64,000 bases of DNA from Pirellula sp. (lineage in GTDB: Bacteria; Planctomycetota; Planctomycetia; Pirellulales; Pirellulaceae), in the NCBI GenBank assembly GCA_021299695.1, contig JAJTEK010000003.1, positions 2,409-66,408 on the forward strand, given 5' to 3'. Below, in pieces: positions 6,679 to 64,000 of the stretch. Each line of letters opens with the position of its first letter. The stretch's first letter is position 1. The notes beneath the pieces are model-generated. The model was not told where the DNA came from and did not search any database. It saw only the letters and a list, made by a program, of their open reading frames with translations. Both the position numbers and the translations under genes were made by a program.

Positions 6679-6951
6679 GATTCGATCGGGGATTTCGTTG
6701 GGATGAACGAAGCAATTATGGTGTATTTTGGAGTACGAGGGGGTATTCGAGCCAACGCCAACGTAACGAATTGTATCGAACCAAGGTTTTCCAGAGCGTC
6801 TGTGAATGCAAATTCCAGTTTTTGATGTCTTGCGCTTGAAGTTAACCTGGGTTTGAGTACAAGAGAGACTATCGCTCAATTTATTTTAGCCGATTTACGG
6901 ATTCAACTTCGTAAGCACAACAATGTCGAAGGCCTTCTCGGGTACCTGCAC

Positions 6952-10197: not shown

Positions 10198-10284
10198 ATT
10201 GCCGGAAGACTTGGATAGGACAATCGTCGATCCGATCGAGCATCGGATCTTAGCGTTCGTACAACTGCCTCTTGGACTCCCTCT

Positions 10285-14411: not shown

Positions 14412-16396
14412 TGGTCGGCCGACAATGCGATCGGATTATTGGTCTGGAGTCTTACCATCTGTTGATAGATGCCGTCGGCTTCGACCAACTCCGCATGCGT
14501 CCCTTGCTGCACGATCTTGCCCTGATCGAGAACCAAGATTACGTCCGCGTTTTGGATGGTACTGAGTCGATGGGCGATAACAAACGAGGTTCGCGAGCGC
14601 AGGAGCAGTTTCAAACTCTGCTGGATCGCTTGTTCGCTCTCGCTGTCGAGGTTGCTGGTTGCCTCGTCGAGAATGAGTATTTTTGGATCGGCGAGAATGG
14701 CCCTTGCGATCGCGATCCTTTGACGTTGTCCACCGCTGAGTTTGAAGCCTCTTTCTCCGATACGCGTTTGGTATCCGCTCGGTGACTTCGAGATGAATTC
14801 ATGTGCTGCGGCGGCTCGGGCCGCGTGTTCGATTGCTTGCGTACTGGCGTGGCGATTCCCGTAAGCGATATTTTCCGCGATGGTTCCATCGAAGAGAAAT
14901 ACGTCCTGTTCTACGATGCCCAGCAATTGCCGAAAGCTATCGAGATCGACGGTTTCAAGAGCCTTTTGATCGATCGAGATCGAACCGGAACTCGGAATGA
15001 AAAACCGAGCGATCAAATTGCATAGCGTCGTTTTCCCAGCGCCGCTGCGTCCGACGATCGCGATGGTCTGACCGGGCTTTGCGATAAAGGAGATCCCAGA
15101 GAGGACTTCTTGGTCGTTCTCGGGGTATTGGAAATGTACGTTTCGAAATTCGATTCGTCCGGAGACTTGTTCCCGCGATAACTTGATCAATTCCTTGGGT
15201 TGTCCACCTGCGGAGTCAGTTGGGTACCTCCTGTTGATTTCCTGCGCTTCGGTCTCGGTCGCAAGCAGATCAAGGATACGATCGAGTCCAGCGAGGTTGT
15301 TTTGGAATTGAACCGCGCTGCCCGTGAGGGTTGCGATCGGACCGAGAAGCATAGCGAGGTAAACCAAGAACATCATCAGGTCACCGAGGGTCAATTGGTC
15401 TTGGAGTATTTGCCAGCCCCCGTAGACCAGCAGGAGGGTTGATGCAAGCGGGATGAGAACCTCCCAGATCACCTCGATCAAACGGGTGCGCCACCATACC
15501 AGGAGGACTTGACGTACTGCATAGTGATTGCCGCGAACATAACGCTGTGATTCGCTTCGTTTTCTACCAAAGGTTCGCACGACTCGAATGCCAGAGAATG
15601 TCTCGGTCGAATTCCCGTCGATCTTCTGGCGTGTGGCTCGCAAATCTCGATACAACGGGCGGATCCGGTAGATCCAGGTTCTATGCGTCAAATAAACGAC
15701 AGGCAGGAGCAATAGTCCTGCGGCCAGGAGTCGCCAATCGACAATGACCAGAACGATGAAACTGCCGATCAATTGCACGATCGCTTGCCAAGGGTTGTAG
15801 AGCATGCTGAAGACCAAATCGGCAATCCCGCCTGCATCTTCTCTGAGGAGGCTTGCAGAACCACCGCTTTTGAGCAGTTGCACTCGATGCAATGGCATCT
15901 CCAGCATGTGTTCGAACACTTTTTTGCGGATCGATGTCTGCACTTGATTGACCGCCTTGGTGCATTCCCATCGACCCCAAAGATGAGCGCAGGTTCGAAG
16001 CAGGGTGACGGAGGTCACAGCGACCGCGATCCAGATGAGCAAATTCAACCCAGTGGTTTGCTTGAGCCAATCGGGAAACCAATCCGGTGTAGGCTTGGGG
16101 GGACTGGTCAGTGCAAAGTCGATCGCGAACTTTGTCCCAAGCGGGGGCAGCAGGCTCAAGAGGGTCGAGACGGTCAGTGTCGCCAGGCCGATCAGGATCT
16201 GCCGACGGTGTCCGGATAACAGTTGGATGAATTCACGGAACAAGGTCCAAAAGGAGCGGTGCGAGCGTTGGACTAATTTGTCTTTCTCCTGACCCGACAT
16301 CGTCGAGTGGAAGGAGTCGTAGTCCTGCTTGCGGTCGGACCCAGATTTCCGGAGATCCTCGACGTATCGACGGAAATCAAATCGGCTAGTTGGCAT
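14408..16396 (-). CDS. ABC exporter, fused permease/ATPase (MsbA-like)
   Basis: 6-TM domain; Walker A GRSGAGKT, LSGGQRQR signature, ILILDEATS, IAHRLST. Confidence 0.93.
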   Translation of the reverse strand: MPTSRFDFRRYVEDLRKSGSDRKQDYDSFHSTMSGQEKDKLVQRSHRSFWTLFREFIQLLSGHRRQILIGLATLTVSTLLSLLPPLGTKFAIDFALTSPPKPTPDWFPDWLKQTTGLNLLIWIAVAVTSVTLLRTCAHLWGRWECTKAVNQVQTSIRKKVFEHMLEMPLHRVQLLKSGGSASLLREDAGGIADLVFSMLYNPWQAIVQLIGSFIVLVIVDWRLLAAGLLLLPVVYLTHRTWIYRIRPLYRDLRATRQKIDGNSTETFSGIRVVRTFGRKRSESQRYVRGNHYAVRQVLLVWWRTRLIEVIWEVLIPLASTLLLVYGGWQILQDQLTLGDLMMFLVYLAMLLGPIATLTGSAVQFQNNLAGLDRILDLLATETEAQEINRRYPTDSAGGQPKELIKLSREQVSGRIEFRNVHFQYPENDQEVLSGISFIAKPGQTIAIVGRSGAGKTTLCNLIARFFIPSSGSISIDQKALETVDLDSFRQLLGIVEQDVFLFDGTIAENIAYGNRHASTQAIEHAARAAAAHEFISKSPSGYQTRIGERGFKLSGGQRQRIAIARAILADPKILILDEATSNLDSESEQAIQQSLKLLLRSRTSFVIAHRLSTIQNADVILVLDQGKIVQQGTHAELVEADGIYQQMVRLQTNNPIALSADH

Positions 16397-49381: not shown

Positions 49382-49534
49382 TAACAAGTTAGAAAGGTTC
49401 ATAGCCGCAAGGGACCGTTTTATTGACGGCAGTCACTTCGAGACTTATCCCGAGGTTGCACTTATCCGTTGCCATCGAACCTGTTATCTTGGAATTCGAG
49501 TCCGGACCGTATTCTGCGAGGGATCCTTGCATAC

Positions 49535-50299
49535 ATGTTGTTTTTTCCTGACCTGAAATCCAGGCACCTTGTCCCCGAGCAGATGGACGATCCGAACCTA
49601 CCGGCTTCAGATCATCAACTTGCGCTGCGTGGACTTCGTAGGATCAATCGATTCTCGGGAACCGTTTCTTATCTTTCTTCGACGATCCTCGATTTGGCCC
49701 GACAGGAAGATCGCGTATGCACGGTGCCTGCCTCGGGCGAAATGCCTTGGGTGCTCCTGGACATCGGATGTGCGAACGGGGAAAACCTCATCGCTCTTTA
49801 TCGGCAGTTAGCAAAAAGAATCGCGGTCCGTTGCATTGGATGGGACATCAGTCCCTATGCGATTCAAAGCGCCAAGGAACAGGCGTTATCTTCTGGGCTC
49901 TCGGAGGAACAAGTTCGATTCGAGGTTGTCGATGCCCTTGGGCCAATCGATCCAGCACCTCAAGCGGACATTGTCATGAATTCGTTGTTTATGCACCATT
50001 TCGAGGAATCGGCGGTGGTGCGTTTGTTGACCCGCAGTGCCCAATTGGCACGCGTGGCCGTCGTGGCCGACGATCTGAATCGCACGCAACTGGGGTGGTT
50101 CCTCGCTAAAACTGGTTGCTGGCTGCTATCTCGCTCACCGGTCGTTCACTTCGATGGTCCGCAATCGGTTCGGGCCGCATTTACTTGTGCGGAAATCGCT
50201 TCGATCGCGGAACGCGCTGGGTTAGTGGACGCTCACCTGATGAGGCATTGGCCCGAACGCTACGCGTTGGTGTGGAGAAGGCAACCTGTGAGATCATGA
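49535..50299 (+). CDS. Methyltransferase-domain protein of the type III PKS cluster
   Basis: EQMDDP, LRRINRFSG, LDIGCANG, SLFMHHF, DGPQSVRAAFT. Start set to ATG 49535. Confidence 0.85.
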   Translation: MLFFPDLKSRHLVPEQMDDPNLPASDHQLALRGLRRINRFSGTVSYLSSTILDLARQEDRVCTVPASGEMPWVLLDIGCANGENLIALYRQLAKRIAVRCIGWDISPYAIQSAKEQALSSGLSEEQVRFEVVDALGPIDPAPQADIVMNSLFMHHFEESAVVRLLTRSAQLARVAVVADDLNRTQLGWFLAKTGCWLLSRSPVVHFDGPQSVRAAFTCAEIASIAERAGLVDAHLMRHWPERYALVWRRQPVRS

Positions 50300-51552
50300 G
50301 TTCCCCGAGCGCGCCCCCTGATTCGTTGAGTTCGACGATCGGCTACGAATCGGCTATCGAGTGTATCTGGGATGTGATCATCGTCGGGGCCGGAGTTGCT
50401 GGTTGTGCAACAGCCATCCTGGCCGCGAAATCGGGTTTGAAGGTACTCTTGGTCGAGTCGAAGCCCTTCCCTCGCGAAAAAGTCTGTGGCGGTTGCTTGA
50501 ACGTACGAGCCCAGGATGCCTTGCAAAGACTAGGCGTGGATCACGAGCTCCAAGCCGCCGGATCGGTAAGGCTTAGCGAACTGCATGTCCAAGTCAAAGG
50601 TGTAGGGCGCATTTGGCCGATCCCATCACTCTTGAGCGTTAGGCGATCGACACTCGATACGATCTTGGTGCGACGCGCGATCGAATGCGGAGCTGATTTT
50701 TTGCAAAACACCACTGCGGTGTTGCCAGCCGAACATGGCCATGTCCATGATCTGATGGAGGTTGAGCTCAGATGCAGCGATGGCTTGCCGCCGTCGGATC
50801 CCTTAGGCCAATTCAAGCCCAAAGCGGCCCAAGCGTGTTGTTTGGTGATTGCCGCTGGCTTGAACCGTTCGGCGTTACGACTCCAGCGGGATTGGCCTTC
50901 GGACATAGCGCCTGATTCCCGCATCGGAGTCCAATCTCTGGTGTCGCTTGAGAGTCTTTCTGAATCGGCGCCCGAATTGCATGGAATGCTCGATAGCAAT
51001 CGCGGCCGTCTGCACATGCTCTCGTCCCATCATGGCTACGTCGGAATTTGCTTAACGGATGGTGATCTCATCGACTTTGCTGCTGCTTTGGATCCCAAGA
51101 GAGTATCGAGTGCAGGTGGAATTGGTCCAGCGGTCTGCGAGATCCTCGAAGAATGCGGAATCAAGACACACCGAGCTTTTGTCGATTGCCATTGGATGGC
51201 CACGAGTCTTTTGACACGGACGTCCAAGATCGTCGCTAAGCGAGGAATTTTTCTAGTCGGAGATGCATTGGGCTACATTGAGCCCTTTACAGGCGAAGGG
51301 ATGTCATGGGCGTTGGACAACGCCGAAACGCTCGCTCCGAATCTTGTTCGGATCGTGCAAGATCCCCGAACCAAAACCCAAGCGGTTAGGGACTGGGAAG
51401 TTTATGTCCAGAAGCAGAGGCGATTCCGGCACCGGGTATGCCGTTGGGTCGCAAAGCAAGCGAGGCATCCGACCCGCTCGCAATGGGTAGTCCAAGCTTG
51501 TCATTGGATCCCTGGATTCCGAACTCGCATTTTGAAAAAGGCGGTACAGTGA
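50296..51552 (+). CDS. FAD-dependent oxidoreductase (geranylgeranyl-reductase-like family)
   Basis: DVIIVGAGVAG, FPREKVCGGCL, LVGDALGYIEPFTGEGM. ATGA overlap with the upstream MTase. Confidence 0.88.
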   Translation: MSSPSAPPDSLSSTIGYESAIECIWDVIIVGAGVAGCATAILAAKSGLKVLLVESKPFPREKVCGGCLNVRAQDALQRLGVDHELQAAGSVRLSELHVQVKGVGRIWPIPSLLSVRRSTLDTILVRRAIECGADFLQNTTAVLPAEHGHVHDLMEVELRCSDGLPPSDPLGQFKPKAAQACCLVIAAGLNRSALRLQRDWPSDIAPDSRIGVQSLVSLESLSESAPELHGMLDSNRGRLHMLSSHHGYVGICLTDGDLIDFAAALDPKRVSSAGGIGPAVCEILEECGIKTHRAFVDCHWMATSLLTRTSKIVAKRGIFLVGDALGYIEPFTGEGMSWALDNAETLAPNLVRIVQDPRTKTQAVRDWEVYVQKQRRFRHRVCRWVAKQARHPTRSQWVVQACHWIPGFRTRILKKAVQ

Positions 51553-52700
51553 TGTCCAATAGGCAATCCGGCGCGGTGATTCTTGGGACAGGCACGAGGA
51601 TACCCGAGGGGGTGATTGACCAAGAGGTCGCCGCTGGGGTGATCCAACGCCTGGGCCTGACCCAACGCTGGAACAAGGTCCTTCCGAAACTGTACCTTAA
51701 GTCTGGGGTTTTGCGTCGAGCGAGCGTTCTACTGAGCGCTGCGGGAGACGATCCCGATTCGCGGCAATCCTTTTACAAGCCGCCGACAGCGGCCGCACCG
51801 TTTGGACCGACCACCGGCGAACGCATGGGAGTTTACGCGAAGCACGCTGGACCTTTGCTCACAAAAACCTGCCAAGCTGCGATACAACGAGCAGGAATTG
51901 AAGCATCGGCGATCACGCAATTGATCACCGTTTCGTGCACAGGATTCTGTGCTCCGGGTCTCGATCATGCTCTGTTTGAGTCGCTAGGCTTGAGCTTGAC
52001 GACACAGCGATCGCACATCGGTTTCATGGGGTGCCATGCGATGGTAAACGGTCTGCGAGTTGCTCAAGCGATCGCGGAATCCGATCCTAGAGCGGTTGTG
52101 TTGGTAGGAGCGGTTGAACTGTGCAGCATCCATCAGCAGTACACAGAAGACCCCGAGCAAATTGTCGCCAATTCGCTCTTCTCCGATGGAGCTGCAGCAG
52201 CGGTCGTTACCGACGCCTCGGCAGTCGTCCGGCAACCAGGCCAAGTTCACTTGCGCATCGTCTCGTCTCTATCGTTGAAGATCCCCGACTCGGCCGATTT
52301 GATGACATGGAAGATCGGGGATCATGGATTTCAAATGACCCTCTCGTCGCTGGTGCCCTCACGCATCGAGGAGAGGCTTAAAGATCCTATCGAAAAATGG
52401 CTTTCCGGACTGGGAATATCGATTGAGGACATTCGACAATGGGTTGTTCATCCAGGAGGTCCCAGAATCCTCGACTCGGTCGACAAGGCGATGGGGTTAG
52501 ACGAAACGAAACTCTCCGCATCCCGTAGGACGTTAGCCAACTACGGAAATATGTCCTCCCCGACGATCCTCTTTATCATCGAGGAGATCCTGTATTCGAG
52601 CACTGGGGAGCATTACGGTCCTAGGAATGGGTATTGGTTGGTGTTCGGTTTCGGGCCCGGCCTACATGCTGAGATTTTGCTTCTGGAACTAACCGAGTAG
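51552..52700 (+). CDS. Type III polyketide synthase (chalcone synthase-like)
   Basis: Cys-His-Asn triad in FMGCHA, VHPGG, YGNMSS; also VSCTGF, ELCSIH, LFSDGAAA, FGPGL. TGATG overlap. Confidence 0.93.
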   Translation: MSNRQSGAVILGTGTRIPEGVIDQEVAAGVIQRLGLTQRWNKVLPKLYLKSGVLRRASVLLSAAGDDPDSRQSFYKPPTAAAPFGPTTGERMGVYAKHAGPLLTKTCQAAIQRAGIEASAITQLITVSCTGFCAPGLDHALFESLGLSLTTQRSHIGFMGCHAMVNGLRVAQAIAESDPRAVVLVGAVELCSIHQQYTEDPEQIVANSLFSDGAAAAVVTDASAVVRQPGQVHLRIVSSLSLKIPDSADLMTWKIGDHGFQMTLSSLVPSRIEERLKDPIEKWLSGLGISIEDIRQWVVHPGGPRILDSVDKAMGLDETKLSASRRTLANYGNMSSPTILFIIEEILYSSTGEHYGPRNGYWLVFGFGPGLHAEILLLELTE

Positions 52701-52706
52701 AGACGA

Positions 52707-55220
52707 TTAGTTGTTGCGTTCCGAGACCATCGTCGTGAGTTGCTCGCCTGACATTCGGTAGGCAGCTTCATGGGGGCAAGCATAAACACAGCGTGGGGTA
52801 CCACCGATACTCTTGCACTGGTCGCAGGTCGTGGCCCGTTGTCGGACAACGGGTATCTTTTGGTTCCCCTCTTGGCGGTATCCGTCTTGATGCCCATACA
52901 TGGTGATGTTTCCATAGGGGCAATTCGTCGCGCATTGCCCACAGCCGATGCAGTTGTCTTCGATGACGATCTCTTTGTCCCCCTCTCGGAAGATTGCATT
53001 GACCGGGCAACCGACCAAGCAATAGGGATCGGTACAAGAGCGACAGCTCGTGGCGACCAGGAAGTTCTCGAAGCGAAGTCCTTCGCGTACCAGACGGGTT
53101 TGCCCCTCGTGTGCATCGGCGCAAGCTTTCGAGCATTCATCGCAACGGGTGCATGACTCAAGGTCCAGGACTAGAAGGCTCTGAGCGTTGTAGAGCCCCT
53201 GCGCCACGAAATTCGCCTTGAGCGTATTTTCGGAGACATCCCGAGTCGCATCGTGGCGCAAGAGTGTCTCGGCGCGATCCAGGAGCGTTTTTCGAAACTC
53301 GGAATTTGCTTCGGTCAGTTCCCGGATGATCGAACCGGGGATCCGAACCAACTCGACGTGGTCCAACGCTGTGCAACTTGAGGTGCGAATCCCCGGGGCA
53401 AAATTCAAAGCTTGCAATTCATCAGCCAATTCGCTTTCGTAGAGTTTTGATAAAACGGCCACTTCCCCAAACACCCCGACTTCTCCTTCGATATTGGGTG
53501 GCCCCATGTAGGTAAGGACCTGATCCCGCATCCCTTGCATCCGGGAAAACTTCACGTAACCGAGTCGAATCATGTAGACTTCATCACCGAGTTCTCCTTC
53601 TTTGAAGATCGGTTGACCTGGCTCGACACTGATCAGCTCAACACCCTGTGCTAGTCGATGCAATTCGATTGGCGTTAGAGAGCGACACAGTGGGGTACGG
53701 CTAAGGTTCGAGTTCAGAGCATGTCGGCGGTAGGCCTCGTTGAGCAGTTTGAGGCTAGCGCCGTTGCGTTGGAGCATGTACAGGACGTTGCTTCCGATTT
53801 CGATGACCTCGGATTCCTCAACGGCCACGACCGTTGCGCTTCTTGGGCTTCGATTCAAACATGCCATCTCTCCGAGGATGACATCCTCGGGCCCTCGAAA
53901 AAGTCTTGATTGGCCCTTGGGATTCGAGGTGTCTGATCCGGTGGCCAAGGTGGCGACACCCTTGGATCCGCTTGTGAACATGCGATTGAAAAAGCCTTTT
54001 CGTTCTGTTGACTTATTGGACTTCTTCACGCCGGAGCGAGAGATTTGAATTTCGAACCTTCCGCGTTGGATCAAAAAGGCGGTCGAACCGTATTCGCCTT
54101 CTTTGCATAGGATGTCGCCGGGTTGCAGGATGCGGCGTACGCAAGCTCCGCCGTTGAACTGTAGAAACTTGTAGGGAATCCCGCTGAAGATAGGGATGTC
54201 GAGCATTTGTTCGGGAGAAAGTACTTCGGTGGATGGATCGCCGCTTTGGCTGGTATTTAGATTCAAGTCGTCGGACAGTTTGGCAATTTGCTTTTCGATG
54301 ACCAAAGGTCGAAATTGCAGCGCATCGGTAGGGCACGAGATCACGCACTCACCGCAGGAAACGCATGAGCTTTCGAGCATGGGTAGGTTGGTATCGAAAG
54401 CGATTTTTGTTGGGTAGCCTTTGCCATCGCGGGCCATGACATCGTTGTGTTTGATTTCGTTGCAAGCACGCGTGCAGCGCTGGCACAAAATGCACGCGTC
54501 GTGGTCGACCGAGATGATTTCCGAGGAAGGATCGACGCCCCTTTTTCCGGCGAGCTCGCTCGGAGGGTACCTCAATTGGATCGGGTCTGGCACAAATCGA
54601 TGAACGAGGTTTTTCAACTCGTTGGGTTCGTATCGCTTGGGCGAGTCGACCAAGCTCTTGCGATCCTGTTGGCTCAGGTGTTCCGATGCGAGCAGTTCGA
54701 CGATCACTCCGACGGAATCCTTGAGGATCTCGACCGTCTTCGGGTTTTCGGTGCTTGCCAACGTAGTGATGACCATCCCCTCTTTGACATGGTAAGTGCA
54801 CGCAGAGACCAAGTCTTTTTTGACCCGTCCACTTTTGCGTTGCTCTTGGATTTCGACCATGCAAACACGGCAAACACCGACGGGTTGAAGATGCTCACGA
54901 TGGCACAGCACAGGCACGGGATTGACGTCCTGAACGCTTCGCACATACATTCGAGTTACCGCATCATAGATCGTCGTCGGTCTTGGAATGACCTCTCCTC
55001 GATCGTTGACCAATACAACTCCTTGCGAGTTTCGCAGCGGAACTGCTTTCTTGACCACCATCGCTTGGCCGTCGATGGTGATACGGACATCCAATTCCAA
55101 ATCGGTAAGCGAGGCATCGGCACGGCGGATCAGTTGGCCGTCGACATCGCGAGCAAAGAGTGCTTCCTCGCGGGCGCTGATGTACTCATTGCCATCCAAG
55201 GGGTCTTGATTTGAAGCCAT
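52707..55220 (-). CDS. Fe-S / cyclic-nucleotide-binding fusion: NuoG-N-like [2Fe-2S]+2[4Fe-4S], two cNMP domains, C-terminal 4x[4Fe-4S] domain
   Basis: LCH..VGVCRVC..SAC; CILCQRCTRAC and CVSCGECVISCP; GEMA..PRSAT; GEVAV..RTSS; CTRCDECSKAC, CRSCTDPYCLVGCP, CIGCGQCATNCP, CDQC..CVYACP. Confidence 0.88.
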   Translation of the reverse strand: MASNQDPLDGNEYISAREEALFARDVDGQLIRRADASLTDLELDVRITIDGQAMVVKKAVPLRNSQGVVLVNDRGEVIPRPTTIYDAVTRMYVRSVQDVNPVPVLCHREHLQPVGVCRVCMVEIQEQRKSGRVKKDLVSACTYHVKEGMVITTLASTENPKTVEILKDSVGVIVELLASEHLSQQDRKSLVDSPKRYEPNELKNLVHRFVPDPIQLRYPPSELAGKRGVDPSSEIISVDHDACILCQRCTRACNEIKHNDVMARDGKGYPTKIAFDTNLPMLESSCVSCGECVISCPTDALQFRPLVIEKQIAKLSDDLNLNTSQSGDPSTEVLSPEQMLDIPIFSGIPYKFLQFNGGACVRRILQPGDILCKEGEYGSTAFLIQRGRFEIQISRSGVKKSNKSTERKGFFNRMFTSGSKGVATLATGSDTSNPKGQSRLFRGPEDVILGEMACLNRSPRSATVVAVEESEVIEIGSNVLYMLQRNGASLKLLNEAYRRHALNSNLSRTPLCRSLTPIELHRLAQGVELISVEPGQPIFKEGELGDEVYMIRLGYVKFSRMQGMRDQVLTYMGPPNIEGEVGVFGEVAVLSKLYESELADELQALNFAPGIRTSSCTALDHVELVRIPGSIIRELTEANSEFRKTLLDRAETLLRHDATRDVSENTLKANFVAQGLYNAQSLLVLDLESCTRCDECSKACADAHEGQTRLVREGLRFENFLVATSCRSCTDPYCLVGCPVNAIFREGDKEIVIEDNCIGCGQCATNCPYGNITMYGHQDGYRQEGNQKIPVVRQRATTCDQCKSIGGTPRCVYACPHEAAYRMSGEQLTTMVSERNN

Positions 55221-55246
55221 ATTTGAAGACAGTCGTTATCGGAAGG

Positions 55247-57118
55247 TTATCGGTCGTTAGGGTGGAAGTACCGCAGGTACGTTCGAAACGGTTCGCTGGC
55301 TACTTGTCCCAACCCGCAGATGCTGGTTGTGCGCATGATGCGTGAGAGCAGGTTGGCGTGTTCGATGAACTGCGGTACGATGCTCTCGGAGCTTTTTGCA
55401 TTCGCAAGTTGCTGAGCCATATCGACTATTTTTCTCGAGCCCAATCGGCAAGGTACGCACTTGCCACAGGACTCACGTTGATAAAACTGGCTGCATGCGA
55501 TCGCTTGATCGAGCAGATCCGCCGTGGCACCGTAAACGACGATCCCGGCCCCGAGCATGAATCCGATCTCGCGCGAGGCATCGATATCCAGAGGCAGCAA
55601 TCGGATATCGGTGGGAGTTTTTGATAACGCGGGATACTTAAAGTCGGCCGTTTCCTTCCCTTCCTTGTCGGTAAGTTTCGGCAGCCGAATCGAATTCTCG
55701 GGTAGCATGGCTGGTAGAAAACCTCCGGATGGGCCGCTGAGGGCTACTGCCAGCAAGGGTACTCCATCCTTCATTCCACCTGCGTAGTCGTCGATCAATT
55801 CCCCGAGTGTGATACCGCAGGGCACCTCATAGGCACCCGGTCGATTCAAATCGCCACTGATGCTGAAATACCTTCTCCCTTTGGAGCGATTGCGACCTGC
55901 ATACTTGTACCAAAGGCCTGGCGTTTTATTTGTTGCCGATGGATCTTTTGCTTGCTCTTTGAGCAGGTTACCTTCGGAGGGTTCTTTCAAAAGTATCGAT
56001 GGAACCCATGCAAAGGTTTCGACGTTGTTGAGAATGGTCGGTTGGTCGTAAAGGCCGTTGGTCTGCAATTCAGGCGGACGATTTCGAGGTTCCGATCGTT
56101 TTCCCTCGAGCGCCTCGATCAACGCGGTTTGTTCACCGCATACGTAGCCGCCTGGACTGATGAACACCTCGAGTCGAAACGTTCGGCCGCTTTGGAAGAT
56201 ATTGGATCCCAAGGCTCCGAGTTGCTCGGCTTGTTCGATCGCTTGCTGGAGGCGATCTATTTGTTCCTGGTATTCGTGTCTGATATAGATGTAGCCTTGT
56301 TTGGCTCCGCTTACCAATGCGGCCATCGTCATGCCTTCGATCACCAAATGGGGAGCAGCAAGGAGGATCTCGCGATCTTTAAAGGTTCCCGGTTCGCTTT
56401 CATCGGCGTTGCACACAACGTATTTGGTCTCACCAGGGGCTATACGAGCTTCTTCCCATTTTGAAAACGCAGGGGCGCCGGCACCTCCCATGCCTAGCAA
56501 ACCGGCATTCTTGAGGGCTTGAATCACTCGATCGTTGCTAGGATCGAGTAAAAAACTCTTGACTGCCGCATATTTCTGTTGGATCGTACCGCTGCGGTAG
56601 CAATCGATTTCCGAACGGTCCATCGTAGCCTGAGCGAGTGCTTGATCCGAATCACCTTGGAGATCCACACCGTCGAGAACACTCTGGACAATTCGGCGGT
56701 ATTCATCGACCTTACGGCCGACGAAGAGCGATTGGCCGTGTGCCGTCGCATTCGAATTGGAGCCCTCGATGATCATCGCCGGTGCACGGTCGCAACGACC
56801 AAGGCAGGAGGCTTCATGGACGTGCAAATTCTCGTGGCCGACTTGGTCCGCAAGTTCCTGGAGTTGCTGGGCGATCTGGACCGAACCTCTCAGACGACAG
56901 CTCATGTCCCGGCAGATGGCGACCCTGCACTTGGCGGGTGCTTGCCGACTGTAGTGTGGAAAGAAGCTCACCACGTCTTGGATCACACGGGACGGTTCAC
57001 CGACCTGACCGGCGATCCTCGCGATATCGTTGTCGCCGATGTAACCTTGGCGATGCTGCACTTCTTGGAGCATCTTGGCGATCCGGGTTCCCACTTGTCG
57101 TTCAACGAGAGATTTCAT
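55247..57118 (-). CDS. NuoE-NuoF fusion (NAD(P)H diaphorase module: [2Fe-2S], FMN, [4Fe-4S])
   Basis: CRDMSC..CLGRC (NuoE-type); GMGGAG, NADESEPGTFKDR, YIYIRHEY, YVCGEQTAL, NNVET, ESCGKCVPCR..CGLG (NuoF-type). Not in a complex I operon. Confidence 0.9.
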   Translation of the reverse strand: MKSLVERQVGTRIAKMLQEVQHRQGYIGDNDIARIAGQVGEPSRVIQDVVSFFPHYSRQAPAKCRVAICRDMSCRLRGSVQIAQQLQELADQVGHENLHVHEASCLGRCDRAPAMIIEGSNSNATAHGQSLFVGRKVDEYRRIVQSVLDGVDLQGDSDQALAQATMDRSEIDCYRSGTIQQKYAAVKSFLLDPSNDRVIQALKNAGLLGMGGAGAPAFSKWEEARIAPGETKYVVCNADESEPGTFKDREILLAAPHLVIEGMTMAALVSGAKQGYIYIRHEYQEQIDRLQQAIEQAEQLGALGSNIFQSGRTFRLEVFISPGGYVCGEQTALIEALEGKRSEPRNRPPELQTNGLYDQPTILNNVETFAWVPSILLKEPSEGNLLKEQAKDPSATNKTPGLWYKYAGRNRSKGRRYFSISGDLNRPGAYEVPCGITLGELIDDYAGGMKDGVPLLAVALSGPSGGFLPAMLPENSIRLPKLTDKEGKETADFKYPALSKTPTDIRLLPLDIDASREIGFMLGAGIVVYGATADLLDQAIACSQFYQRESCGKCVPCRLGSRKIVDMAQQLANAKSSESIVPQFIEHANLLSRIMRTTSICGLGQVASEPFRTYLRYFHPNDR

Positions 57119-57121
57119 GAT

Positions 57122-58702
57122 TTAGCGTTTGTGGGATTGGATGATTTCAAGAAGCTGTTTTTGGAAATCGTCTGGATCGAAGTACCGAGAAGCTCGGTAG
57201 GGCATCTGCTGAGTCCGCGTCCACATCATCGTCGGAAAATCCCAGTCGTAAGGTTCGGAGGGTAGGACGATTTGACCCGGAATTTCGATCTCTCCGAGGG
57301 CTCGGTTTGCAATTCTCCATTGCACGGCAGACTCCCAGGAGGGTCCGTGGGTCAATGAAGGCAAGGTCCTAGCATTCCAGGCCTCTCGGATCGGTGGGAT
57401 CTGACCGGGCATGACGATCGGATATTGGCATTGGAGAATCGGCTCAAGGAGCTCGAGCATCGCGTCGATGTGCGTCCGAATTTCGTCCGTTTGTCCCGTT
57501 GGATGATTGGCAAGAGGATTCAAAAGCAATTGCTTAAGGGGCTTGGAGTGCGAAACCCAGGATTGCACACTCGGGTGCGAGAAAGGGATCGGGGATTCTC
57601 CCATGGGACCGCAGGGTGCGTCGGCACTGGTCGAATCGGTATTGGAGGAATGGGTATTGGGAAATTGGGTGAGAGCAAGAGCCAGATCGATATGTTCGAG
57701 GTACCATCCGTCCCATTCGGCAAGCGGTTGGCTTGGTGGGTTCGTTTTTCGATTTGCCTCGATCGGATGGTGGCAGCTTGTGCAGCGATGCTCGGTCAAC
57801 TCGGGCCATTCGGATTTGCCCAGGCGATTCTTAAGGAGTTCGAGGCGTTGTTTCGCATTGACCAATTTCCCAATCCGCCAAGTATCGAGCGATTCGGCCA
57901 CGGGGTTTGCAGTAATGATTGGTCCGACGTTGGGCTTGGCCATCGCTGCGGCGACATTATTGTTGTCCCACCAGTGTTTTGGGTAACGGGTCAAAAAATT
58001 CGTCAATTCGAAATAGGTCGGAGGGTGGCCGGCGGCCATCAATTGGTGAGAAACCTCTTGTTGGCCCAGGGGCATGGAAGGTTGGTCGTTGAAATGCACC
58101 TCCTCGGTGCGGCCGAGTTGGCCGATATGGCACGATCCGCACACCTGAGCAAGCTGCCAGGCCGATTCGGTATTGACGCGTCCGTTGGCCGATGGATCTT
58201 TAAAACGCTCTATTCCAAGAGCTTTCCATGAGTTTGAAAGGTGGGAGTCGTCCCAATGGATCGCCGAACCGTGGCAGGCTTGGCAATCGACACCTTGAAT
58301 TCTTTGAGTTCTTGGAGCTAGTTCGCTCGCATGGCACGACACGCAACGGGTTTCTAAAAACTCAAGGTAGACTGGGGCTTGGGTCGTTTCCGGGAAGGAT
58401 TTGTCATGGTCCCAGAGGGCTTGGACGATTCGTTGAGAATCGGCGCTCAGCAGCCGAGCATAAGCGTTCGCATGGGGATCGTGCTGGAACCATATTTCGC
58501 CAGATTGGTTCCAAAGGAAAGAGGTTCCAACGGTGTTTCCGTGGCAGTTGGTTGAGTTGCAGTCTCGCTTGACGAAGAAATCGGGATTCGCACGATGGAT
58601 CGAAGGGGATTGGGCCCGAGCTACGGCTAGGGTGGCAACCGATAGGGTGGCAAGCCAACCAAAAAGAACGGTGTGAAAAACACGGGGCCAAGTCTGGGTC
58701 AT
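57122..58702 (-). CDS. Exported multiheme cytochrome c (4 CxxCH + 1 CxxxxCH)
   Basis: Signal peptide from ATG 58702 (ATGA overlap); CNSTNCH, CVSCH, CQACH, CGSCH, CTSCH; also MAAGHPP. Confidence 0.85.
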   Translation of the reverse strand: MTQTWPRVFHTVLFGWLATLSVATLAVARAQSPSIHRANPDFFVKRDCNSTNCHGNTVGTSFLWNQSGEIWFQHDPHANAYARLLSADSQRIVQALWDHDKSFPETTQAPVYLEFLETRCVSCHASELAPRTQRIQGVDCQACHGSAIHWDDSHLSNSWKALGIERFKDPSANGRVNTESAWQLAQVCGSCHIGQLGRTEEVHFNDQPSMPLGQQEVSHQLMAAGHPPTYFELTNFLTRYPKHWWDNNNVAAAMAKPNVGPIITANPVAESLDTWRIGKLVNAKQRLELLKNRLGKSEWPELTEHRCTSCHHPIEANRKTNPPSQPLAEWDGWYLEHIDLALALTQFPNTHSSNTDSTSADAPCGPMGESPIPFSHPSVQSWVSHSKPLKQLLLNPLANHPTGQTDEIRTHIDAMLELLEPILQCQYPIVMPGQIPPIREAWNARTLPSLTHGPSWESAVQWRIANRALGEIEIPGQIVLPSEPYDWDFPTMMWTRTQQMPYRASRYFDPDDFQKQLLEIIQSHKR

Positions 58703-60249
58703 TGGGTAAATTCCCCTCCGGACCCCGTTACTCCTGCGAGTCCTAATCCGGTCGGTTCGTCTTTCGGTCCGTGATCGTGGTATCGGTGGCAATCGATGCA
58801 ATCGGCTCGGGCGATATTTTTCACCCCTGCGAGTTGCGATTCCTTGCGCTTCGCCTCATCGACGATGTGGCATACTTGGCATCCTTGGATTCCATCGATA
58901 AGGACATCGCTGGAGAGACCACCTAAGAGGGACTTGGGCTCTGATGGGGATAACGCGTTCGAATCGAGATGGATTTTGTGGCAAACATCGCATTGAACAT
59001 TGATATGTGGACCGTGTGAGAAGCTCGCTTTCGTGAGCCATTGAGTGGGCAGAGCGCTCGGTGCGACGATGGACTCAGGGTTGTTGGCCGCAGCGAGATC
59101 GGTTGCGGGTTGATGGCACTTGGAGCAAGCGTAGGTTTTGAAGATCTCGGTCTTTGCAAGCGGGTTGTTCTCCTTAATGAGCTCGATGAGATCTTCGCCC
59201 GACGCGGTCCCTGCAATTCGAAGTCGGTTTTCCTCTTCGACGGACGATTCGGTTGGATTGGAGGTACTTTGCAAACGCTCGGATCGAGCGAGGCGTTGCT
59301 GTTGGCTCGTAGCGACGACATCCAGAAGGTGTTGATTGTCTTTGAAATCGAGTTTATGAGGTAGCTCCAATTGGTGGCACGCTTCGCAGTGCTTGCTAAA
59401 CTCGACCGGCTTGTAGAGGACGTGCGCGTTGGTTTGACGGTCTAGAGAATTGGTTACTGGGATTGAGTTGGGACTTTCAAGAGTTCCGTATCCGGCTATT
59501 GGATGGTCTCTTTCGTGGCAATCGCCACATGTCAATTGAATAGGATCGGAGCCGTTTTTCGGTTTTGTGTATTGATCTCGGAATGCGGGGGGAAGCGAGT
59601 CCCAGGTTTTGGCGGATCGATCGCCAGGTTTCAGGGCTTGTCCTGGCCGCATGTGTTGGGTGTGGCTAAATTGGATGGTCCCTGGATCTTTGGCGAGGCC
59701 TTGGAAGTCTGGATGTCCAGGAATCCCGTCGGTGGAGTCGAAGCTGGTCACTTTGGAGAGAGGTCGATTCGCATCTTTGACGAATTGAGCCAGGTCTGCG
59801 TGGCAACGGACGCAGGATTCATCGGCGATGTCCAACAGGTTATGGTTGATCCCCAAATGCTCGTGGTGGCATTGAACGCACGATTCGAGTGCGAGAAGGT
59901 TGGGTTTCGTCGCAGCCGGGTAATGGTCTGCCATCCTGTGACACGCGTTGCATCTTCGGTTGTTATCTGCAATGACCTCAGGGGACCTTGCGAAACTTCT
60001 GGTGTTGATGGGGCTCCATGGAGCGTGGCATTGCTCGCATCCTGTTTCGTTCCAGGCATGGTGGGCTTTTGAGAGTGTACCGGTACTGAGTTGTTTGGCC
60101 GCGGAAGGGGTCAGCATCCAAAGACCGTAAAGGCCCCCGAGGATCAGACCCGCCCAGCCGAACCACCTCTTCCAGAGAATCGAGCGATCCTCAGACGATG
60201 TGTAGTTACGGTCGATTCGACGTGAACGCTGCTTACCTGTGATCGCCAT
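58699..60249 (-). CDS. Membrane-anchored decaheme cytochrome c
   Basis: N-terminal TM helix; 10 motifs: CEQCH, CNACH, CVQCH, CVRCH, CGDCH, CEACH, CSKCH, CDVCH, CQVCH, CIDCH. Confidence 0.9.
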   Translation of the reverse strand: MAITGKQRSRRIDRNYTSSEDRSILWKRWFGWAGLILGGLYGLWMLTPSAAKQLSTGTLSKAHHAWNETGCEQCHAPWSPINTRSFARSPEVIADNNRRCNACHRMADHYPAATKPNLLALESCVQCHHEHLGINHNLLDIADESCVRCHADLAQFVKDANRPLSKVTSFDSTDGIPGHPDFQGLAKDPGTIQFSHTQHMRPGQALKPGDRSAKTWDSLPPAFRDQYTKPKNGSDPIQLTCGDCHERDHPIAGYGTLESPNSIPVTNSLDRQTNAHVLYKPVEFSKHCEACHQLELPHKLDFKDNQHLLDVVATSQQQRLARSERLQSTSNPTESSVEEENRLRIAGTASGEDLIELIKENNPLAKTEIFKTYACSKCHQPATDLAAANNPESIVAPSALPTQWLTKASFSHGPHINVQCDVCHKIHLDSNALSPSEPKSLLGGLSSDVLIDGIQGCQVCHIVDEAKRKESQLAGVKNIARADCIDCHRYHDHGPKDEPTGLGLAGVTGSGGEFTQ

Positions 60250-60278
60250 AACTTGGTAGGTCCTAGAGCCTCAATCGG

Positions 60279-61325
60279 TTACATGTAGCGAAGGGATTGA
60301 ATGATATGGACGATCAGCAGGACACCGAGCATGACGCTGATGCCTGCGTGAAAAGCGATCCAGCGATGCAGCCAGGCGTGTGCCATCCGCTGCGCGTCGA
60401 ATTGCAGTCGCTCTTCGACGGTTGACTGCAAGGCCATGAGGATTGGGAAGGCGGAGTCGGAGCAAGAGGATTGAAGATTTTTGAACCACTCTTGGGTCCG
60501 TTGCAGGTTGCCAATCGGCGAGCGACTTGTAGATCTCGTGCTGTTTGGGACTAAGTTCCTCAGCAAGAAAGGTTCGATCACCAGCGTATACTGTTTCCAT
60601 ATTTCAATGCGATCTGCCCCATTGAGATCATCGGCCAAGTCTTGTCCAAAAGTTGCCCGTTGCGGATCCCGGCGCTGCCTTGCCCCGACCACGATTGCGT
60701 TGCTCTTGTCGAGCCCCGGCGTCGCATCGGCGTTTCGCATCGAAGGAACAGACAGCCCCGATTTCAGGGCCGATAGTTGGTCCTCGAGAGCGACGAGTTT
60801 TCCGGTGTTGGGTGGTTTGGGGCCCAACGCAACGGTGAGCATTTGCCGATTCTCCAGTGCGCTGAGCAAGGAGACATCATCGATTTGGCTGGGGATTGTT
60901 TCCTGCGGAAGGTTGCCGAGCATCCAACGTGGGATAAAAACCTGCATCACCCAGCCAAACACTCCGCTACTGAGCACCAGAACCAGAAGCGCCATCAAAA
61001 GGGTGGTGAAGGTACCGCCGAAACGAAACCCTGAGTGGATGAAGGCTAGGGGGCCGCAGGCGAGTCCGAGCCAAAGATGGTAGGCGACCCAGAATTTCGT
61101 ACGCCCGAGTTTATATTTTCTAAGCCGTTTCCGTGGCCAAAGCAGCAGCTCAAAGAGAATGATTCCGGCTGCAATACTTCCGACGACCAATCCCGCCAGA
61201 GAACTTCCGGTCGCAGGGCTACCTTTTGCACCCAAGGAATACTGCCATAGGCCACCTCCGAGGATCAGGAGGATCGCTAACGCGATCGGGCCGTAATGGA
61301 GGTGCATTTTGCGAGCCAGCAACAC
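60279..61325 (-). CDS. Putative di-heme b membrane electron-transfer protein (ferric-reductase/NOX-like His spacing)
   Basis: About 5 TM helices; two helices each carry H-x13-H (YHLWLGLACGPLAFIH; FHAGISVMLGVLLIVH). Confidence 0.7.
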   Translation of the reverse strand: MLLARKMHLHYGPIALAILLILGGGLWQYSLGAKGSPATGSSLAGLVVGSIAAGIILFELLLWPRKRLRKYKLGRTKFWVAYHLWLGLACGPLAFIHSGFRFGGTFTTLLMALLVLVLSSGVFGWVMQVFIPRWMLGNLPQETIPSQIDDVSLLSALENRQMLTVALGPKPPNTGKLVALEDQLSALKSGLSVPSMRNADATPGLDKSNAIVVGARQRRDPQRATFGQDLADDLNGADRIEIWKQYTLVIEPFLLRNLVPNSTRSTSRSPIGNLQRTQEWFKNLQSSCSDSAFPILMALQSTVEERLQFDAQRMAHAWLHRWIAFHAGISVMLGVLLIVHIIQSLRYM

Positions 61326-61764
61326 GACAGTAGCCCTTCAAGCGGAAGACGAGTTTGATGCATCCTACGGCAACCGCTTCGGTCCGCTGAATCGAACGAG
61401 GCCATGTCGCCTCAATCGTTTAAAGATTGGTTTTACCAGTCCAATTCTTGTTTCGGAGTCGGTTATGGCGTCTCTCAACACTATATCCTGAATTACAACG
61501 CATTTCTAAGCCGAACTCGGCGCAATCCTGGAGAATCAGTTTCTCACCTCGACGTTCCCCTATTAGTCCTATTGATACTGCGACTGTCACAGCGAAGGGG
61601 CGATTTGCTGACCGGAAGCCTATCAGGGGGCCCGCCGGCCTATTCCGGTGATTTCAGCCTTACCGTTGCAACGTGCGCCGGTAGATTGGGGCTCGAAAGC
61701 AATTATTCGCACGATTCACTACATTTCAGCAAGTTTCAGCACGATTCTACAACTAGAAATGAGC

Positions 61765-64000
61765 TTAGCGATTTCGAAATAGCTTCGGTTTAACGCAGGC
61801 ACTTACCGCAGGCGAAGCTTGGAATCGGCTACCTAGGAGTTTCTCTAACTGCTCGATGACCGGTTGTGGATCGGCGACCAAATCCGGATACGAAACCTCG
61901 AGCAAACCCACACGATCGCTTTGGCTCAGCACATGACGTATCTGCCTGCTGTGAGCTTCCTGCACGTCGATCAAATGCTGCTTTTCCGATCTGGCCTTTT
62001 GACCCTGACGATCGAGCATCACCATCTGGGAATCAACCACCTGCTGCGTAGGCCTGACCATGTAAATGATCTTATAGCGATGGGGTCTTGGCAAAGACGG
62101 CAATAGCGCCGAGATCACCTTCACGACTTTACCGCCAGTTTGCTCGATGATCCTAGGATTCCTCGGTAGCTCCTTGATCTCTTCCCATTCCCAATATCCC
62201 TCGGGATTATCGTCATCGGCAGTCCGCTTGCCATCGGTCATCGGTTCGATGCCAGCTGCCTTAAGCATCTGCATCATGAGCGACGTCCCGGAACGAGGTA
62301 GACCAGAGACGACCAAAATCTCCAAAGGTTCGATGGCCGCGAACTCGGCCTCTTTTCGATCGAACTGCGCTTGCTTTTCGCGATCCATCGCGTCGCGATC
62401 GGATTTGCGCTGTGCTGCCAGCAATCGCAACCTTGCCAACTCACGATGATGGGACTCTCGGATCTCCACGGCTGTCTGGGTTCTAAGATTCTCGATCTGT
62501 GTGAATTTGTCGAACTCACCGAGCCGGTGATAAACTCGTGCCATCATGCGCATGGCAGGTAGAAATCGAGGCGCTAGCTGATGGCAGTTGCGCAGCGCTT
62601 TCTCTGCCTCACGCAACTTGTTCAATTGCAGTAGACTTGTTCCCAAAAGGAACTGCCCCATCGGGTTTCCGTACTGCAATCCGATCGTTGCTAGCGCCGA
62701 ATCGACCGCCTCATGGGCTCGTTGTTGATGCAACTCGATGCGTGTCTTGACCAAATACGCTTGGGCATTGTCTGGGTCGGCCTCAAGCACGCGTCCAACC
62801 GCTGCTAAGCCTTCGTCCCAACGCCGAAGCGCCGCATAGCAACGAGCCAAAAACAACTGGATCTCGATCTCTTGCGGCATCTTGTCCTGCACACCGTGCA
62901 AGAGATCCAACGCGGTTTTGTAATCCGCTTTCTCGATGGCGATCGAAGCCTTGATCAAATCCGCATTTTCGGTACGACCAAAATGGCCCCGGGCCTGATC
63001 GATTGTCGCATCAGCCTCTTCGAGCATTTTCAATTGCAATTGGCAATTCGCAAGGACTTGGGCATAGTCCGACCGGAACGGCTGTGCATGAAAGCATCGC
63101 TCAAGCAGGGGGAGTGCTTGCTCGTACCTACCGGCATACATATAAGCCCGAGCCATGTTCCAATCGTTTTCCCGATGGGTCTCGGCGATCGCCACCGAGT
63201 TGTCTTCGGGGATCTCGTCGATGTACCCAAGCGCGACGAATTGGTCGAGCAGCGCGCGATTCGCTGTCTGGCTCAGTGGCACTCGAGTGCGCGCTGTGCC
63301 TGAAGATGATTCCCAACTGGGAATCGACTCGACATTTCGTTTCTCGGTAAAGACATCCTCAAGCACTCTGCCTTCCATGTCTTTGCCAACAGGCAAGCCA
63401 AAGTGGTGCAAGATCGTTGGGGTGATATCCAGCAAGCGAGCGCCGAAGACCAGTTCGTCTTTGCAGAAACCTTCGCCCGACGCGATAAAGACACCTTGAG
63501 GCCGGTGCCAGATGGTGATCCCCGCCGGGACGCGCGGCGTGAACTTGGGGCGCAGATGGTCGCTATGGAAGCCGTGGTCTGAGACGAGCATCACGGCTGT
63601 TTCCGGTCCAGCGAGTTGAAGCAATCTTTGGAGCATCAGATCGTGGAGACGGTACGCACCGTTTACCACCTCTTTGTACATCTCGAAGTCGTCTTGCGGG
63701 ATTCCCTGATCTTGGGTGGATGGTAGTGCATGAACTGGTGACAGATCTCATCGATGGTTCGGTAATAGACCGCAAAGAAATCCCACTCGGGGTCGATCTC
63801 CATCAATCGCACAGCAGCGTTGTGTGCCGAGAAGGCTTCCGAGAGGCGTTTGGCAAGTTGCAATAAACGCTGGTCTTTCGACTGATCGACCTTGGGTGCG
63901 TTGGGAATGAACAGCCGAATCACATAGTCAGGATCGATATCGTGGGGGCTGATGCGGTCTTCGTTCAGGAGTTCTGCGAGATCATCAGGCCAGTAGGTAC
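61765..64000 (-). pseudogene. Alkaline-phosphatase-superfamily + TPR + sulfotransferase-like fusion, apparently frameshifted near 63709 (pseudogene or sequence error); 5' end outside the window
   Basis: One frame is open from the window edge through WDFFAVYYRTIDEICHQFMHYHPPK. The protein continues in another frame as QGIPQDDFEMYKEVV..MLVSDHGF..LLDITPTIL..ALGY, then TPRs, then VSGLPRSGTSLMMQML. Confidence 0.7.

Follow-up and report, generated by a model that had tools for sequence, protein, structure and literature searches.

A candidate NAD(P)H-to-periplasm electron wire with cyclic nucleotide-binding domains, encoded by a conserved five-gene operon of Pirellula-type planctomycetes

INTRODUCTION

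The five-gene locus analyzed here, found in a 64,000-nucleotide stretch of DNA (the window; Pirellula sp., GenBank assembly GCA_021299695.1, contig JAJTEK010000003.1, positions 2,409 to 66,408), has its closest described relatives in two published gene sets, both of them bioinformatic descriptions. He et al. defined the PCC3 and PCC4 clusters in Fe(II) oxidizers in 2017 (PMC5566968). The inner-membrane protein of these clusters has five transmembrane (TM) helices, with WX3HX13H on TM3 and TM5 and SGXXG on TM4, and PCC4 subgroup II, which includes Planctomycetes, has an upstream gene for a pfam13247 Fe-S protein; the authors proposed a cytochrome b active toward quinone, with electrons flowing inward (PMC5566968). 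A 2024 preprint described ptdABCDEFG, in which PtdE is a 4Fe-4S protein that binds cyclic nucleotide monophosphates (cNMP), PtdF is a ferric-reductase-like membrane protein, PtdG is a decaheme cytochrome, and PtdC is an FAD/NAD(P) oxidoreductase; the function of ptd was stated as "completely unknown," and the PtdE/F/G proteins of Tistlia consotensis are deposited as SMF72598/72604/72608 (Table S7; bioRxiv 10.1101/2023.11.21.568154). The reported hosts of PCC4 and ptd are saline or marine, or Fe(II) oxidizers (PMC5566968; bioRxiv 10.1101/2023.11.21.568154).

The window comes from a metagenome-assembled genome (MAG) of a freshwater Pirellula-type planctomycete whose nearest relatives are 91-97% identical. 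Its presumed operon shares with ptd and PCC4 the trio of a cNMP-binding Fe-S protein, a membrane protein, and a decaheme cytochrome, and the signature of the membrane protein is identical to the published definition of the PCC3/PCC4 inner-membrane protein. The porin, the NrfA-family pentaheme PtdA, the tetraheme PtdD, and the oxidoreductase PtdC match none of the five proteins; PtdC is replaced here by a NuoE-NuoF fusion together with a HoxU-like domain that is fused to the cNMP-ferredoxin. The operon also differs in gene order, in its pentaheme, in the class III nucleotide cyclase linked to it in this clade, and in its freshwater host. The likeness to Ptd appears in composition, gene order, and motif signature; loci of Opitutaceae (Verrucomicrobiota) with the order tetraheme-cNMP-ferredoxin-mem-decaheme, which match the profiles of the window's families at ~1e-100 and 1e-16, serve as a proxy for Ptd and are not the deposited Ptd sequences.

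An initial annotation of the window had called the locus a candidate undescribed system. This does not hold for the three-gene core, which is already catalogued, as PCC3/PCC4 in 2017 and as ptdEFG in the 2024 preprint. The NuoEF/HoxU-fed, cyclase-linked planctomycete form is new; our literature search found no paper describing this form, the co-variation of NuoEF with the HoxU-like domain, or the linkage to a cyclase. We propose that the five proteins probably make up one membrane-spanning redox complex for quinone-independent electron export from NAD(P)H to periplasmic multiheme cytochromes, under cNMP control.

RESULTS

Five genes in conserved order

All five genes are on the minus strand. 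They encode, in order, an inner-membrane protein of 348 amino acids (mem; 60279-61325), a decaheme cytochrome c of 516 (cytA; 58699-60249), a secreted pentaheme cytochrome c of 526 (cytB; 57122-58702), a NuoE-NuoF fusion of 623 (NuoEF; 55247-57118), and an Fe-S/cNMP protein of 837 (52707-55220). The successive gaps are 29, -4, 3, and 26 bp, and the negative value reflects the overlap of the cytB ATG at 58702 with the cytA stop codon as ATGA. We took this ATG as the cytB start; the longest open reading frame (ORF) begins at a TTG at 58801. The description of five co-oriented, tightly spaced genes in the initial annotation is borne out in coordinates, strand, and gaps, and its assignment of the products as a His-paired membrane protein, 10-heme and 5-heme cytochromes, and a NuoE-F fusion agrees with motifs and Pfam.

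The annotation had also proposed a search for co-occurrence in other genomes. Among ~100 fetched loci, the same five genes stand in the same order in essentially every one that is long enough, about 70 Pirellulales loci. Rubripirellula lacrimiformis has the order mem-cytA-cytB-NuoEF-FeS, as does even the locus of the most distant mem match (30% identity). Because the arrangement recurs so often, the locus is not a chance assembly; it is a real feature, conserved well beyond chance. Proteins with the 837-residue architecture are frequent among Pirellulales, with cultured examples in Rubripirellula, Rhodopirellula, Roseiconus, and Novipirellula, and are annotated there as "HndC" or "cyclic nucleotide-binding domain-containing protein."

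A five-helix membrane protein with two histidine pairs

Both hydropathy and an AlphaFold2 (AF2) model predict five TM helices in mem. The model, with a predicted local distance difference test score (pLDDT) of 84 and a predicted template modeling score (pTM) of 0.77, has helices at residues 8-32, 43-61, 76-97, 105-138, and 290-347 and a helical domain at residues 140-290, between TM4 and TM5. The histidine pairs H83-x13-H97 and H326-x13-H340 are parts of the motifs W79x3H83x13H97 on TM3 and W322x3H326x13H340 on TM5, and TM4 carries S120GxxG124. In 39 homologues (alignment A1), none of the four His, the WX3H motifs, or SGxxG varies; across 74 cross-phylum homologues, the four His, W79, W322, and G121 are invariant. 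The family comprises 2882 representative clusters at E ≤ 1e-3. Its members give weak matches to DUF4405, Ni_hydr_CYTB, and Ferric_reduct, the last (PF01794) in 2 of 39 at E 0.12.

The loop at residues 62-76 carries a charge of +8. Because the positive-inside rule makes this basic loop cytoplasmic, the ~190-residue domain between TM4 and TM5 is predicted to be cytoplasmic as well, with the N terminus in and the C terminus out. H83 and H326 would then lie near the inner face of the membrane and H97 and H340 near the outer face. With this arrangement, mem is a putative di-heme b transmembrane wire with two stacked bis-His b-hemes.

Two multiheme cytochromes c

CytA has 10 CxxCH motifs. Its basic N-terminal peptide, predicted to be on the cytoplasmic side, is followed by a single TM anchor at about residues 28-46. 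All 10 CxxCH motifs, in register, and 10 further His are kept in 28 sequences from at least four phyla, and the N-terminal motif and the TM helix are likewise conserved in this alignment. A sequence search of cytA against the PDB gave no match.

CytB has a predicted cleavable signal peptide ending ...AVARA/QS, four CxxCH motifs plus one CxxxxCH, and five invariant distal His (H77, H154, H219, H226, and H243; alignment A2). Its C-terminal half is helical and free of heme motifs. The cytB AF2 model has a pLDDT of 79 and a pTM of 0.84; we found neither a sequence match nor a Foldseek fold match to cytB in the PDB and no match to Cytochrom_C552. Since the number of extra conserved His equals the number of hemes in each protein (10 in cytA and 5 in cytB), all c-hemes may be bis-His, which suggests electron transfer, that is, a wire rather than a catalytic site.

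Most Pirellulales relatives have one or two extra, divergent cytB-like pentaheme genes beside the operon (L020, 1-3697; L097, L100, and L114; ~40 others). These genes sit upstream of mem, and their products have either four CxxCH motifs and one CxxxxCH or five CxxCH motifs. The window's immediate neighborhood has no such extra genes.

A predicted NAD(P)H dehydrogenase module gained and lost as a unit

Pfam finds the 2Fe-2S_thioredx, Complex1_51K, SLBB, and NADH_4Fe-4S domains in NuoEF, and NCBIfam agrees. The protein has the Cys of a NuoE-type [2Fe-2S] cluster (C69, C74, C105, and C109), an NADH loop (GLLGMGGAGAPAFSKW), an FMN motif (GGYVCGEQTALIEALEG), and the Cys of an N3 [4Fe-4S] cluster (C551, C554, C557, and C601). 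Its best PDB relatives are NuoF-like subunits of NiFe and FeFe hydrogenases and of formate dehydrogenases, and Nqo1 of complex I. We therefore read NuoEF as a predicted NAD(P)H:FMN dehydrogenase module.

The 837-residue protein gives Pfam matches to Fer2_4, an Fer4 dicluster, cNMP_binding, and a C-terminal Fer4 region. Its N-terminal part, assigned by Pfam, NCBIfam, and Cys motifs, is a HoxU/NuoG-N/HydA-N-like domain (54303-55094, minus strand) with one [2Fe-2S] cluster (C106/C117/C120/C141) and two [4Fe-4S] clusters within C243-C296. The domain has no His-ligated N5-type cluster and no molybdopterin-like domain, and there are no Cys at all between C141 and C243. Together with the four [4Fe-4S] clusters of the C-terminal ferredoxin, the Cys motifs yield the seven Fe-S clusters that had been ascribed to this NuoG-N-like protein.

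Of 173 core genes counted in the fetched loci, some contigs of which were fetched twice, 101 had both the HoxU-like domain and an adjacent NuoEF gene, 69 had neither, and 3 were discordant. NuoEF and the HoxU-like domain thus behave as one unit in gain and loss, which marks them as parts that work together.

In >150 loci from several phyla, no version of the locus has a hydrogenase, formate dehydrogenase, molybdoenzyme, or quinone module as a conserved neighbor, in line with the observation in the initial annotation that molybdopterin, NiFe, and H-cluster subunits are missing. Its statement that there are no other nuo genes stands for the locus but not for the genome, in which the canonical nuoD (the sole Complex1_49kDa match) and a nuoF homologue are both on contig C107.

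A different arrangement occurs in Gemmatimonadota, where a distant mem homologue was found in only 1 of 251 genomes (G440). At 8682-16009 of its contig C35 (locus L139), the mem homologue is followed by a pyridine-nucleotide oxidoreductase with 2x[4Fe-4S] and FAD/NAD(P) domains, and the locus also encodes two giant cytochromes, with 23 and 37 CxxCH motifs. Judged by its domains, this is a second, independent way of joining a wire of this kind to a predicted NAD(P)H dehydrogenase.

Tandem cNMP domains, a ferredoxin, and a linked cyclase

Two PF00027 cNMP-binding domains follow the HoxU-like part of the 837-residue protein, domain 1 at 53730-54188 and domain 2 at 53271-53708 (minus strand); the match has an E value of 5e-23 in three stretches. 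Domain 1 has a canonical phosphate-binding cassette, LGEMACLNRSPRSATVVA (also read as LGEMACLNRSPRSATV), and a family-wide insertion of ~50 residues in the beta-barrel. Its GE...PR[ST]A motif is kept in every variant aligned and in alignment A3. The cassette of domain 2 reads FGEVAVL...GIRTSSCTALD, interrupted by a clade-specific insertion of ~20 residues, and other clades have the short canonical form FGE[MI]GLL..R[TS]A[ST]C.A. Every aligned variant keeps G-E and R-[ST]-[AS] in both domains. Chains of the protein kinase A regulatory subunit (PKA-R) and of protein kinase G (PKG) are among the PDB matches to the tandem region.

A strongly conserved linker, QGLYNAQSLLVLDLESC, joins domain 2 to the first cluster of a C-terminal ferredoxin of the HycB/HybA/DmsB/NrfC type (52710-53174, minus strand; Pfam, NCBIfam, and Cys motifs). 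The ferredoxin has four [4Fe-4S] clusters, with Cys motifs starting at C690, C726, C757, and C799, and all 16 Cys are invariant in alignment A3. Its PDB matches are HycB3, HycB, NrfC, and FdnH. The ferredoxin presumably docks on the cytoplasmic face of mem.

The initial annotation saw no regulator, which is correct within the five-gene stretch, but ~27 Pirellula-clade loci have a class III nucleotide cyclase gene (PF00211; 637 residues) as the immediate upstream neighbor of mem, in the same orientation. The nearest relatives carry a class III cyclase gene 2-9 kb upstream of the operon. The genome of the window has three class III cyclases in all. One of them, with tetratricopeptide repeats (TPR) at its C terminus, is on the 6-kb contig C188 (locus L140; 2869-4782, minus strand), divergent from a cytB pentaheme paralogue (5005-6179, plus strand) that runs off the contig end. 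In relatives, this cyclase/pentaheme-paralogue pair sits just upstream of the operon, and the assembly breaks between pair and operon here. Because C188 is collinear with the segment between cyclase and operon in a relative (L057), the cyclase is most likely several kilobases upstream of the operon in this genome too. The genes that would then lie between cyclase and operon encode an extracytoplasmic function (ECF) sigma factor, a kinase fragment, and a TPR-sulfotransferase. The idea of cNMP control gains support from the canonical cassettes of both domains and the linked cyclase gene.

An invariant core in several phyla

In other Planctomycetota families, the order is shuffled and parts are lost, and the core is mostly retained. 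Three arrangements occur: NuoEF-FeS-mem-cytA; a cNMP-cNMP-ferredoxin protein, preceded by forkhead-associated (FHA) domains or nothing, with mem, cytA, and sometimes cytB, lacking NuoEF; and mem-cytA-cytB alone. A profile search of species genomes with the cNMP-ferredoxin core returned >600 stretches, and gene order was compared across phyla for the best 80. These come from Acidobacteriota, Rokubacteria/Methylomirabilota, Verrucomicrobiota, other Planctomycetota, Wallbacteria, and Binatia, and in nearly all of the best 80 the next two genes encode a mem homologue and a decaheme. We conclude that the invariant core is a cNMP-cNMP-polyferredoxin, a 5-TM tetra-His protein, and a decaheme. Record titles indicate that aerobic heterotrophs from soil and fresh water make up most of the hosts.

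Some loci carry additional genes. In L142, L157, and ~12 other loci of Acidobacteriota and Rokubacteria, conserved secreted HbpS-like (PF03928) proteins occur with the long (NuoEF) form, as does a cytochrome of 1200-1300 residues with 9-10 hemes and LVIVD repeats; this suggests an extended extracytoplasmic branch, which is missing from the window. TonB-dependent receptor genes adjoin the module in two unrelated lineages (L137, from the Acidobacteriota genome G402, at 5959-13124; L021-L023, upstream of mem), a possible link to iron uptake. The ferredoxin subunit of L137 has three FHA domains before its cNMP domains.

A few taxonomic assignments look doubtful or were dropped. For locus L151, from a MAG labeled Blastochloridaceae, the closest named relatives of the proteins come mostly from Verrucomicrobiota, and the genome falls with Opitutaceae; L134, from a MAG labeled Chitinophagaceae, has a Pirellula-like mem. 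Both labels probably reflect misbinning or mislabeling. The loci grouped with L151 were rejected as Pseudomonadota and assigned to Verrucomicrobiota, since G795 is an Opitutaceae MAG. L018 and L019 were rejected as nonplanctomycete relatives; they encode ordinary CRP-like proteins.

Flanking regions of the operon

The 439 bp upstream of mem (61326-61764) are by position the presumed operon promoter region; a promoter/terminator scan gave promoter-like matches there at chance level, and the position is only suggestive. Beyond them, on the 5' side of the operon, is a TPR-sulfotransferase gene (61765-63681, minus strand) for a protein of 638 residues with TPR repeats and a C-terminal sulfotransferase domain; its extreme N terminus gives a weak match to PF01663, a type I phosphodiesterase/nucleotide pyrophosphatase family (E 0.003, under the curated cutoff). 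An ORF at 63663-63998 (minus strand) precedes and overlaps this gene. Together the two look like a lineage-specific insertion between cyclase and operon. The 3' end of the operon is faced by convergent genes at 49469-52700 (plus strand), for a methyltransferase, an FAD oxidoreductase, and a chalcone-synthase-like type III polyketide synthase (51438-52700, plus strand), which are unrelated to the redox module.

DISCUSSION

Relation to known electron transfer complexes

Several well-known systems share parts or logic with this operon. The NuoE [2Fe-2S] cluster, the NuoF FMN/NADH site with N3, and the HoxU/NuoG-N clusters are those of the HoxEFU, HydBC, and FdsBG diaphorases and of the complex I N-module; here, however, the Fe-S subunit runs on into cNMP domains and a four-cluster ferredoxin. 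We rejected membership in complex I, as there is no full NuoG, NuoBCDI Q-module, or membrane arm at the locus, and membership in the Hox, Hyd, and Fds enzymes, as neither the window nor the gene sets conserved at related loci include a NiFe, H-cluster, or Mo/W-bis-pyranopterin guanine dinucleotide subunit. The Tmc, Hmc, and DsrMKJOP complexes of sulfate reducers have the same layout of periplasmic multiheme c, membrane cytochrome b, and cytoplasmic Fe-S protein. They are built from NarI- or NrfD-type membrane subunits and HdrD-like CCG proteins, their electrons normally move inward, and unlike the window operon they have neither an NAD(P)H module nor cNMP domains. Neither Pfam nor NCBIfam gave a NarI, NrfD, or HdrD-like CCG match, and membership in Tmc/Hmc was rejected.

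A functional parallel may be drawn with NOX, FRE, and STEAP enzymes and with MsrQ plus Fre, in which cytoplasmic NAD(P)H supplies electrons to a flavin and then to two stacked bis-His b-hemes, bound by H-x13-H on two helices, for delivery to an acceptor on the far side. Such transfer is electrogenic and nonconserving and is therefore tightly regulated, a logic that would apply here as well. NOX-type enzymes have a fused FAD domain and deliver to O2, Fe(III), or MsrP, whereas this operon has a separate NuoEF/Fe-S assembly with 9 Fe-S clusters and a multiheme c chain as output. Membership in the NOX/ferric-reductase group was rejected, since mem has five TM helices rather than six, no significant PF01794 match, and no Foldseek match in the PDB.

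A proposed path for electrons and its control

The sequences show directly the cofactor-binding motifs and their conservation, the gene linkage, and the joint gain and loss of NuoEF and the HoxU-like domain; heme b binding, topology, direction of flow, ligand identity, gating, and the acceptor are what we infer. In the proposed path, NAD(P)H would reduce FMN and then the N3 cluster of NuoEF, and electrons would move on to the [2Fe-2S] and the two [4Fe-4S] clusters of the HoxU-like N-terminal domain. Going across or past the tandem cNMP module, they would next reach the C-terminal ferredoxin with its four [4Fe-4S] clusters and would then move to the inner heme b (H83/H326) and the outer heme b (H97/H340) of the 5-TM protein mem, and finally through the membrane-anchored decaheme and the soluble pentaheme to an extracytoplasmic acceptor. 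The outward direction is favored because transfer from NADH to c-hemes is downhill and outward movement of electrons is helped by the membrane potential. NADH has a potential of ~ -320 mV, and electron transfer in eukaryotic NOX is likewise favored by the membrane potential.

The cNMP tandem, which is invariant in the ferredoxin subunit, would most likely make the conductance or the assembly of the wire dependent on cyclic AMP (cAMP) or cyclic GMP (cGMP), and in the Pirellula clade the nucleotide would be made by the dedicated class III cyclase encoded with the operon. Regulated conductance or docking is suggested alike by the invariance of the tandem, the conserved linker, the FHA domains found elsewhere, and the linked cyclase. 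A built-in switch makes sense because an export path wastes reducing power and membrane potential. More tentatively, and with distinctly less confidence than we place in the export path itself, the system may be a second-messenger-gated, quinone-independent export valve, a "split bacterial NOX": cAMP or cGMP from the cyclase would bind the tandem and reposition the HoxU-like clusters relative to the ferredoxin, thereby switching a wire of 9 Fe-S clusters, 2 b-hemes, and 15 c-hemes, so that abundant aerobic bacteria of soil and fresh water could dump NAD(P)H electrons outside on demand.

Several observations weigh against the proposal of a cNMP-controlled export wire. No significant Pfam match was found for mem, and a Foldseek search of its AF2 model against the PDB returned no fold match, with nothing below E 0.28; the predicted heme b binding is therefore an argument from motifs. 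NuoEF and the HoxU-like domain are missing from about 40% of related loci, some with FHA domains instead, so that NAD(P)H is not a universal donor and the core may have another primary role. To this extent the NAD(P)H-fed chain of the initial annotation needs revision: its composition and topological logic stand, but the NAD(P)H module is an optional input outside the core and is missing in many relatives. The ~20-residue insertion in the cassette of cNMP domain 2 may weaken binding and makes its competence less certain, and several unrelated genes stand between cyclase and operon in this genome. The window encodes neither an acceptor nor an outer-membrane component. Finally, the same mem signature in Fe(II)-oxidizer clusters has been read as inward and quinone-coupled (PMC5566968).

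Other readings of the same genes

That last reading, extended to the present operon, is electron uptake: the cytochromes would take electrons from a periplasmic or extracellular donor, e.g., Fe(II), and mem, as in the PCC3/PCC4 model, would be a quinone-reactive cytochrome b passing them to the quinone pool or, here, onward to NAD(P)+. NuoEF/HoxEFU-type modules are chemically reversible, and the short-form clusters have no cytoplasmic NAD(P)H module, both of which suit uptake. However, the invariant partner of mem is a cytoplasmic four-cluster ferredoxin that a quinone-reducing cytochrome b would not need, and we identified no quinone-site motif. Inward transfer to NAD(P)+ would be uphill in redox potential and opposed by the membrane potential, and hosts are mostly aerobic heterotrophs of soil and fresh water. 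We consider uptake improbable. A role as an electron supply arm is also unlikely, if a little less so. Here the chain would serve a periplasmic enzyme whose gene lies at another site, for example a peroxidase, a reductase of nitrogen oxides, or a reductase that repairs proteins, much as Fre/MsrQ serves MsrP. This is compatible with the proposed export for the path up to cytB, and it would account for a module in which no terminal catalytic site is evident and the c-hemes all look bis-His; pentaheme paralogues are encoded elsewhere or divergently, and other phyla add HbpS-like secreted proteins and giant cytochromes. Against it, no candidate enzyme is conserved beside the module in >150 loci from several phyla, and the nonheme C-terminal half of cytB has no recognizable fold.

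The least probable of the three alternatives, by a small step, is a redox sensing or signaling device, in which the heme and Fe-S chain would report the periplasmic redox state to a cytoplasmic protein that integrates cNMP or, elsewhere, FHA/phospho-Thr signals. Both cNMP-binding and FHA domains are signaling modules; a cyclase, an ECF sigma factor, and a kinase fragment are near the operon in this lineage, and the short forms lack an obvious substrate-oxidizing enzyme. Yet cNMP and FHA domains are receivers, and no output domain (helix-turn-helix, kinase, GGDEF, or cyclase) is fused to the ferredoxin subunit in the variants examined. A sensor would also hardly justify 15-60 c-hemes and an NAD(P)H dehydrogenase that comes and goes as a unit. 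Outward, quinone-independent export remains the reading that we prefer.

Implications

The long and short modular forms, together with the linked cyclase, provide natural controls, and cultured carriers include Rubripirellula lacrimiformis, Rhodopirellula sallentina, Rhodopirellula sp. SWK7, and Novipirellula spp. If the proposal is true, a direct route from NAD(P)H to the periplasm, avoiding the quinone pool, would exist in at least 5-6 phyla, and the carriers would include very abundant soil Verrucomicrobiota and Acidobacteria and freshwater Planctomycetota. An energy-dissipating route would be held under second-messenger control in these bacteria; this would be the first case in which an Fe-S electron wire is a direct target of a cyclic nucleotide and, on the gated-valve reading, the first electron transfer chain in which such a nucleotide sets the conductance allosterically. 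Models of redox balancing and of extracellular electron transfer would also gain a new entry point at the inner membrane, in organisms that are not deemed electroactive.

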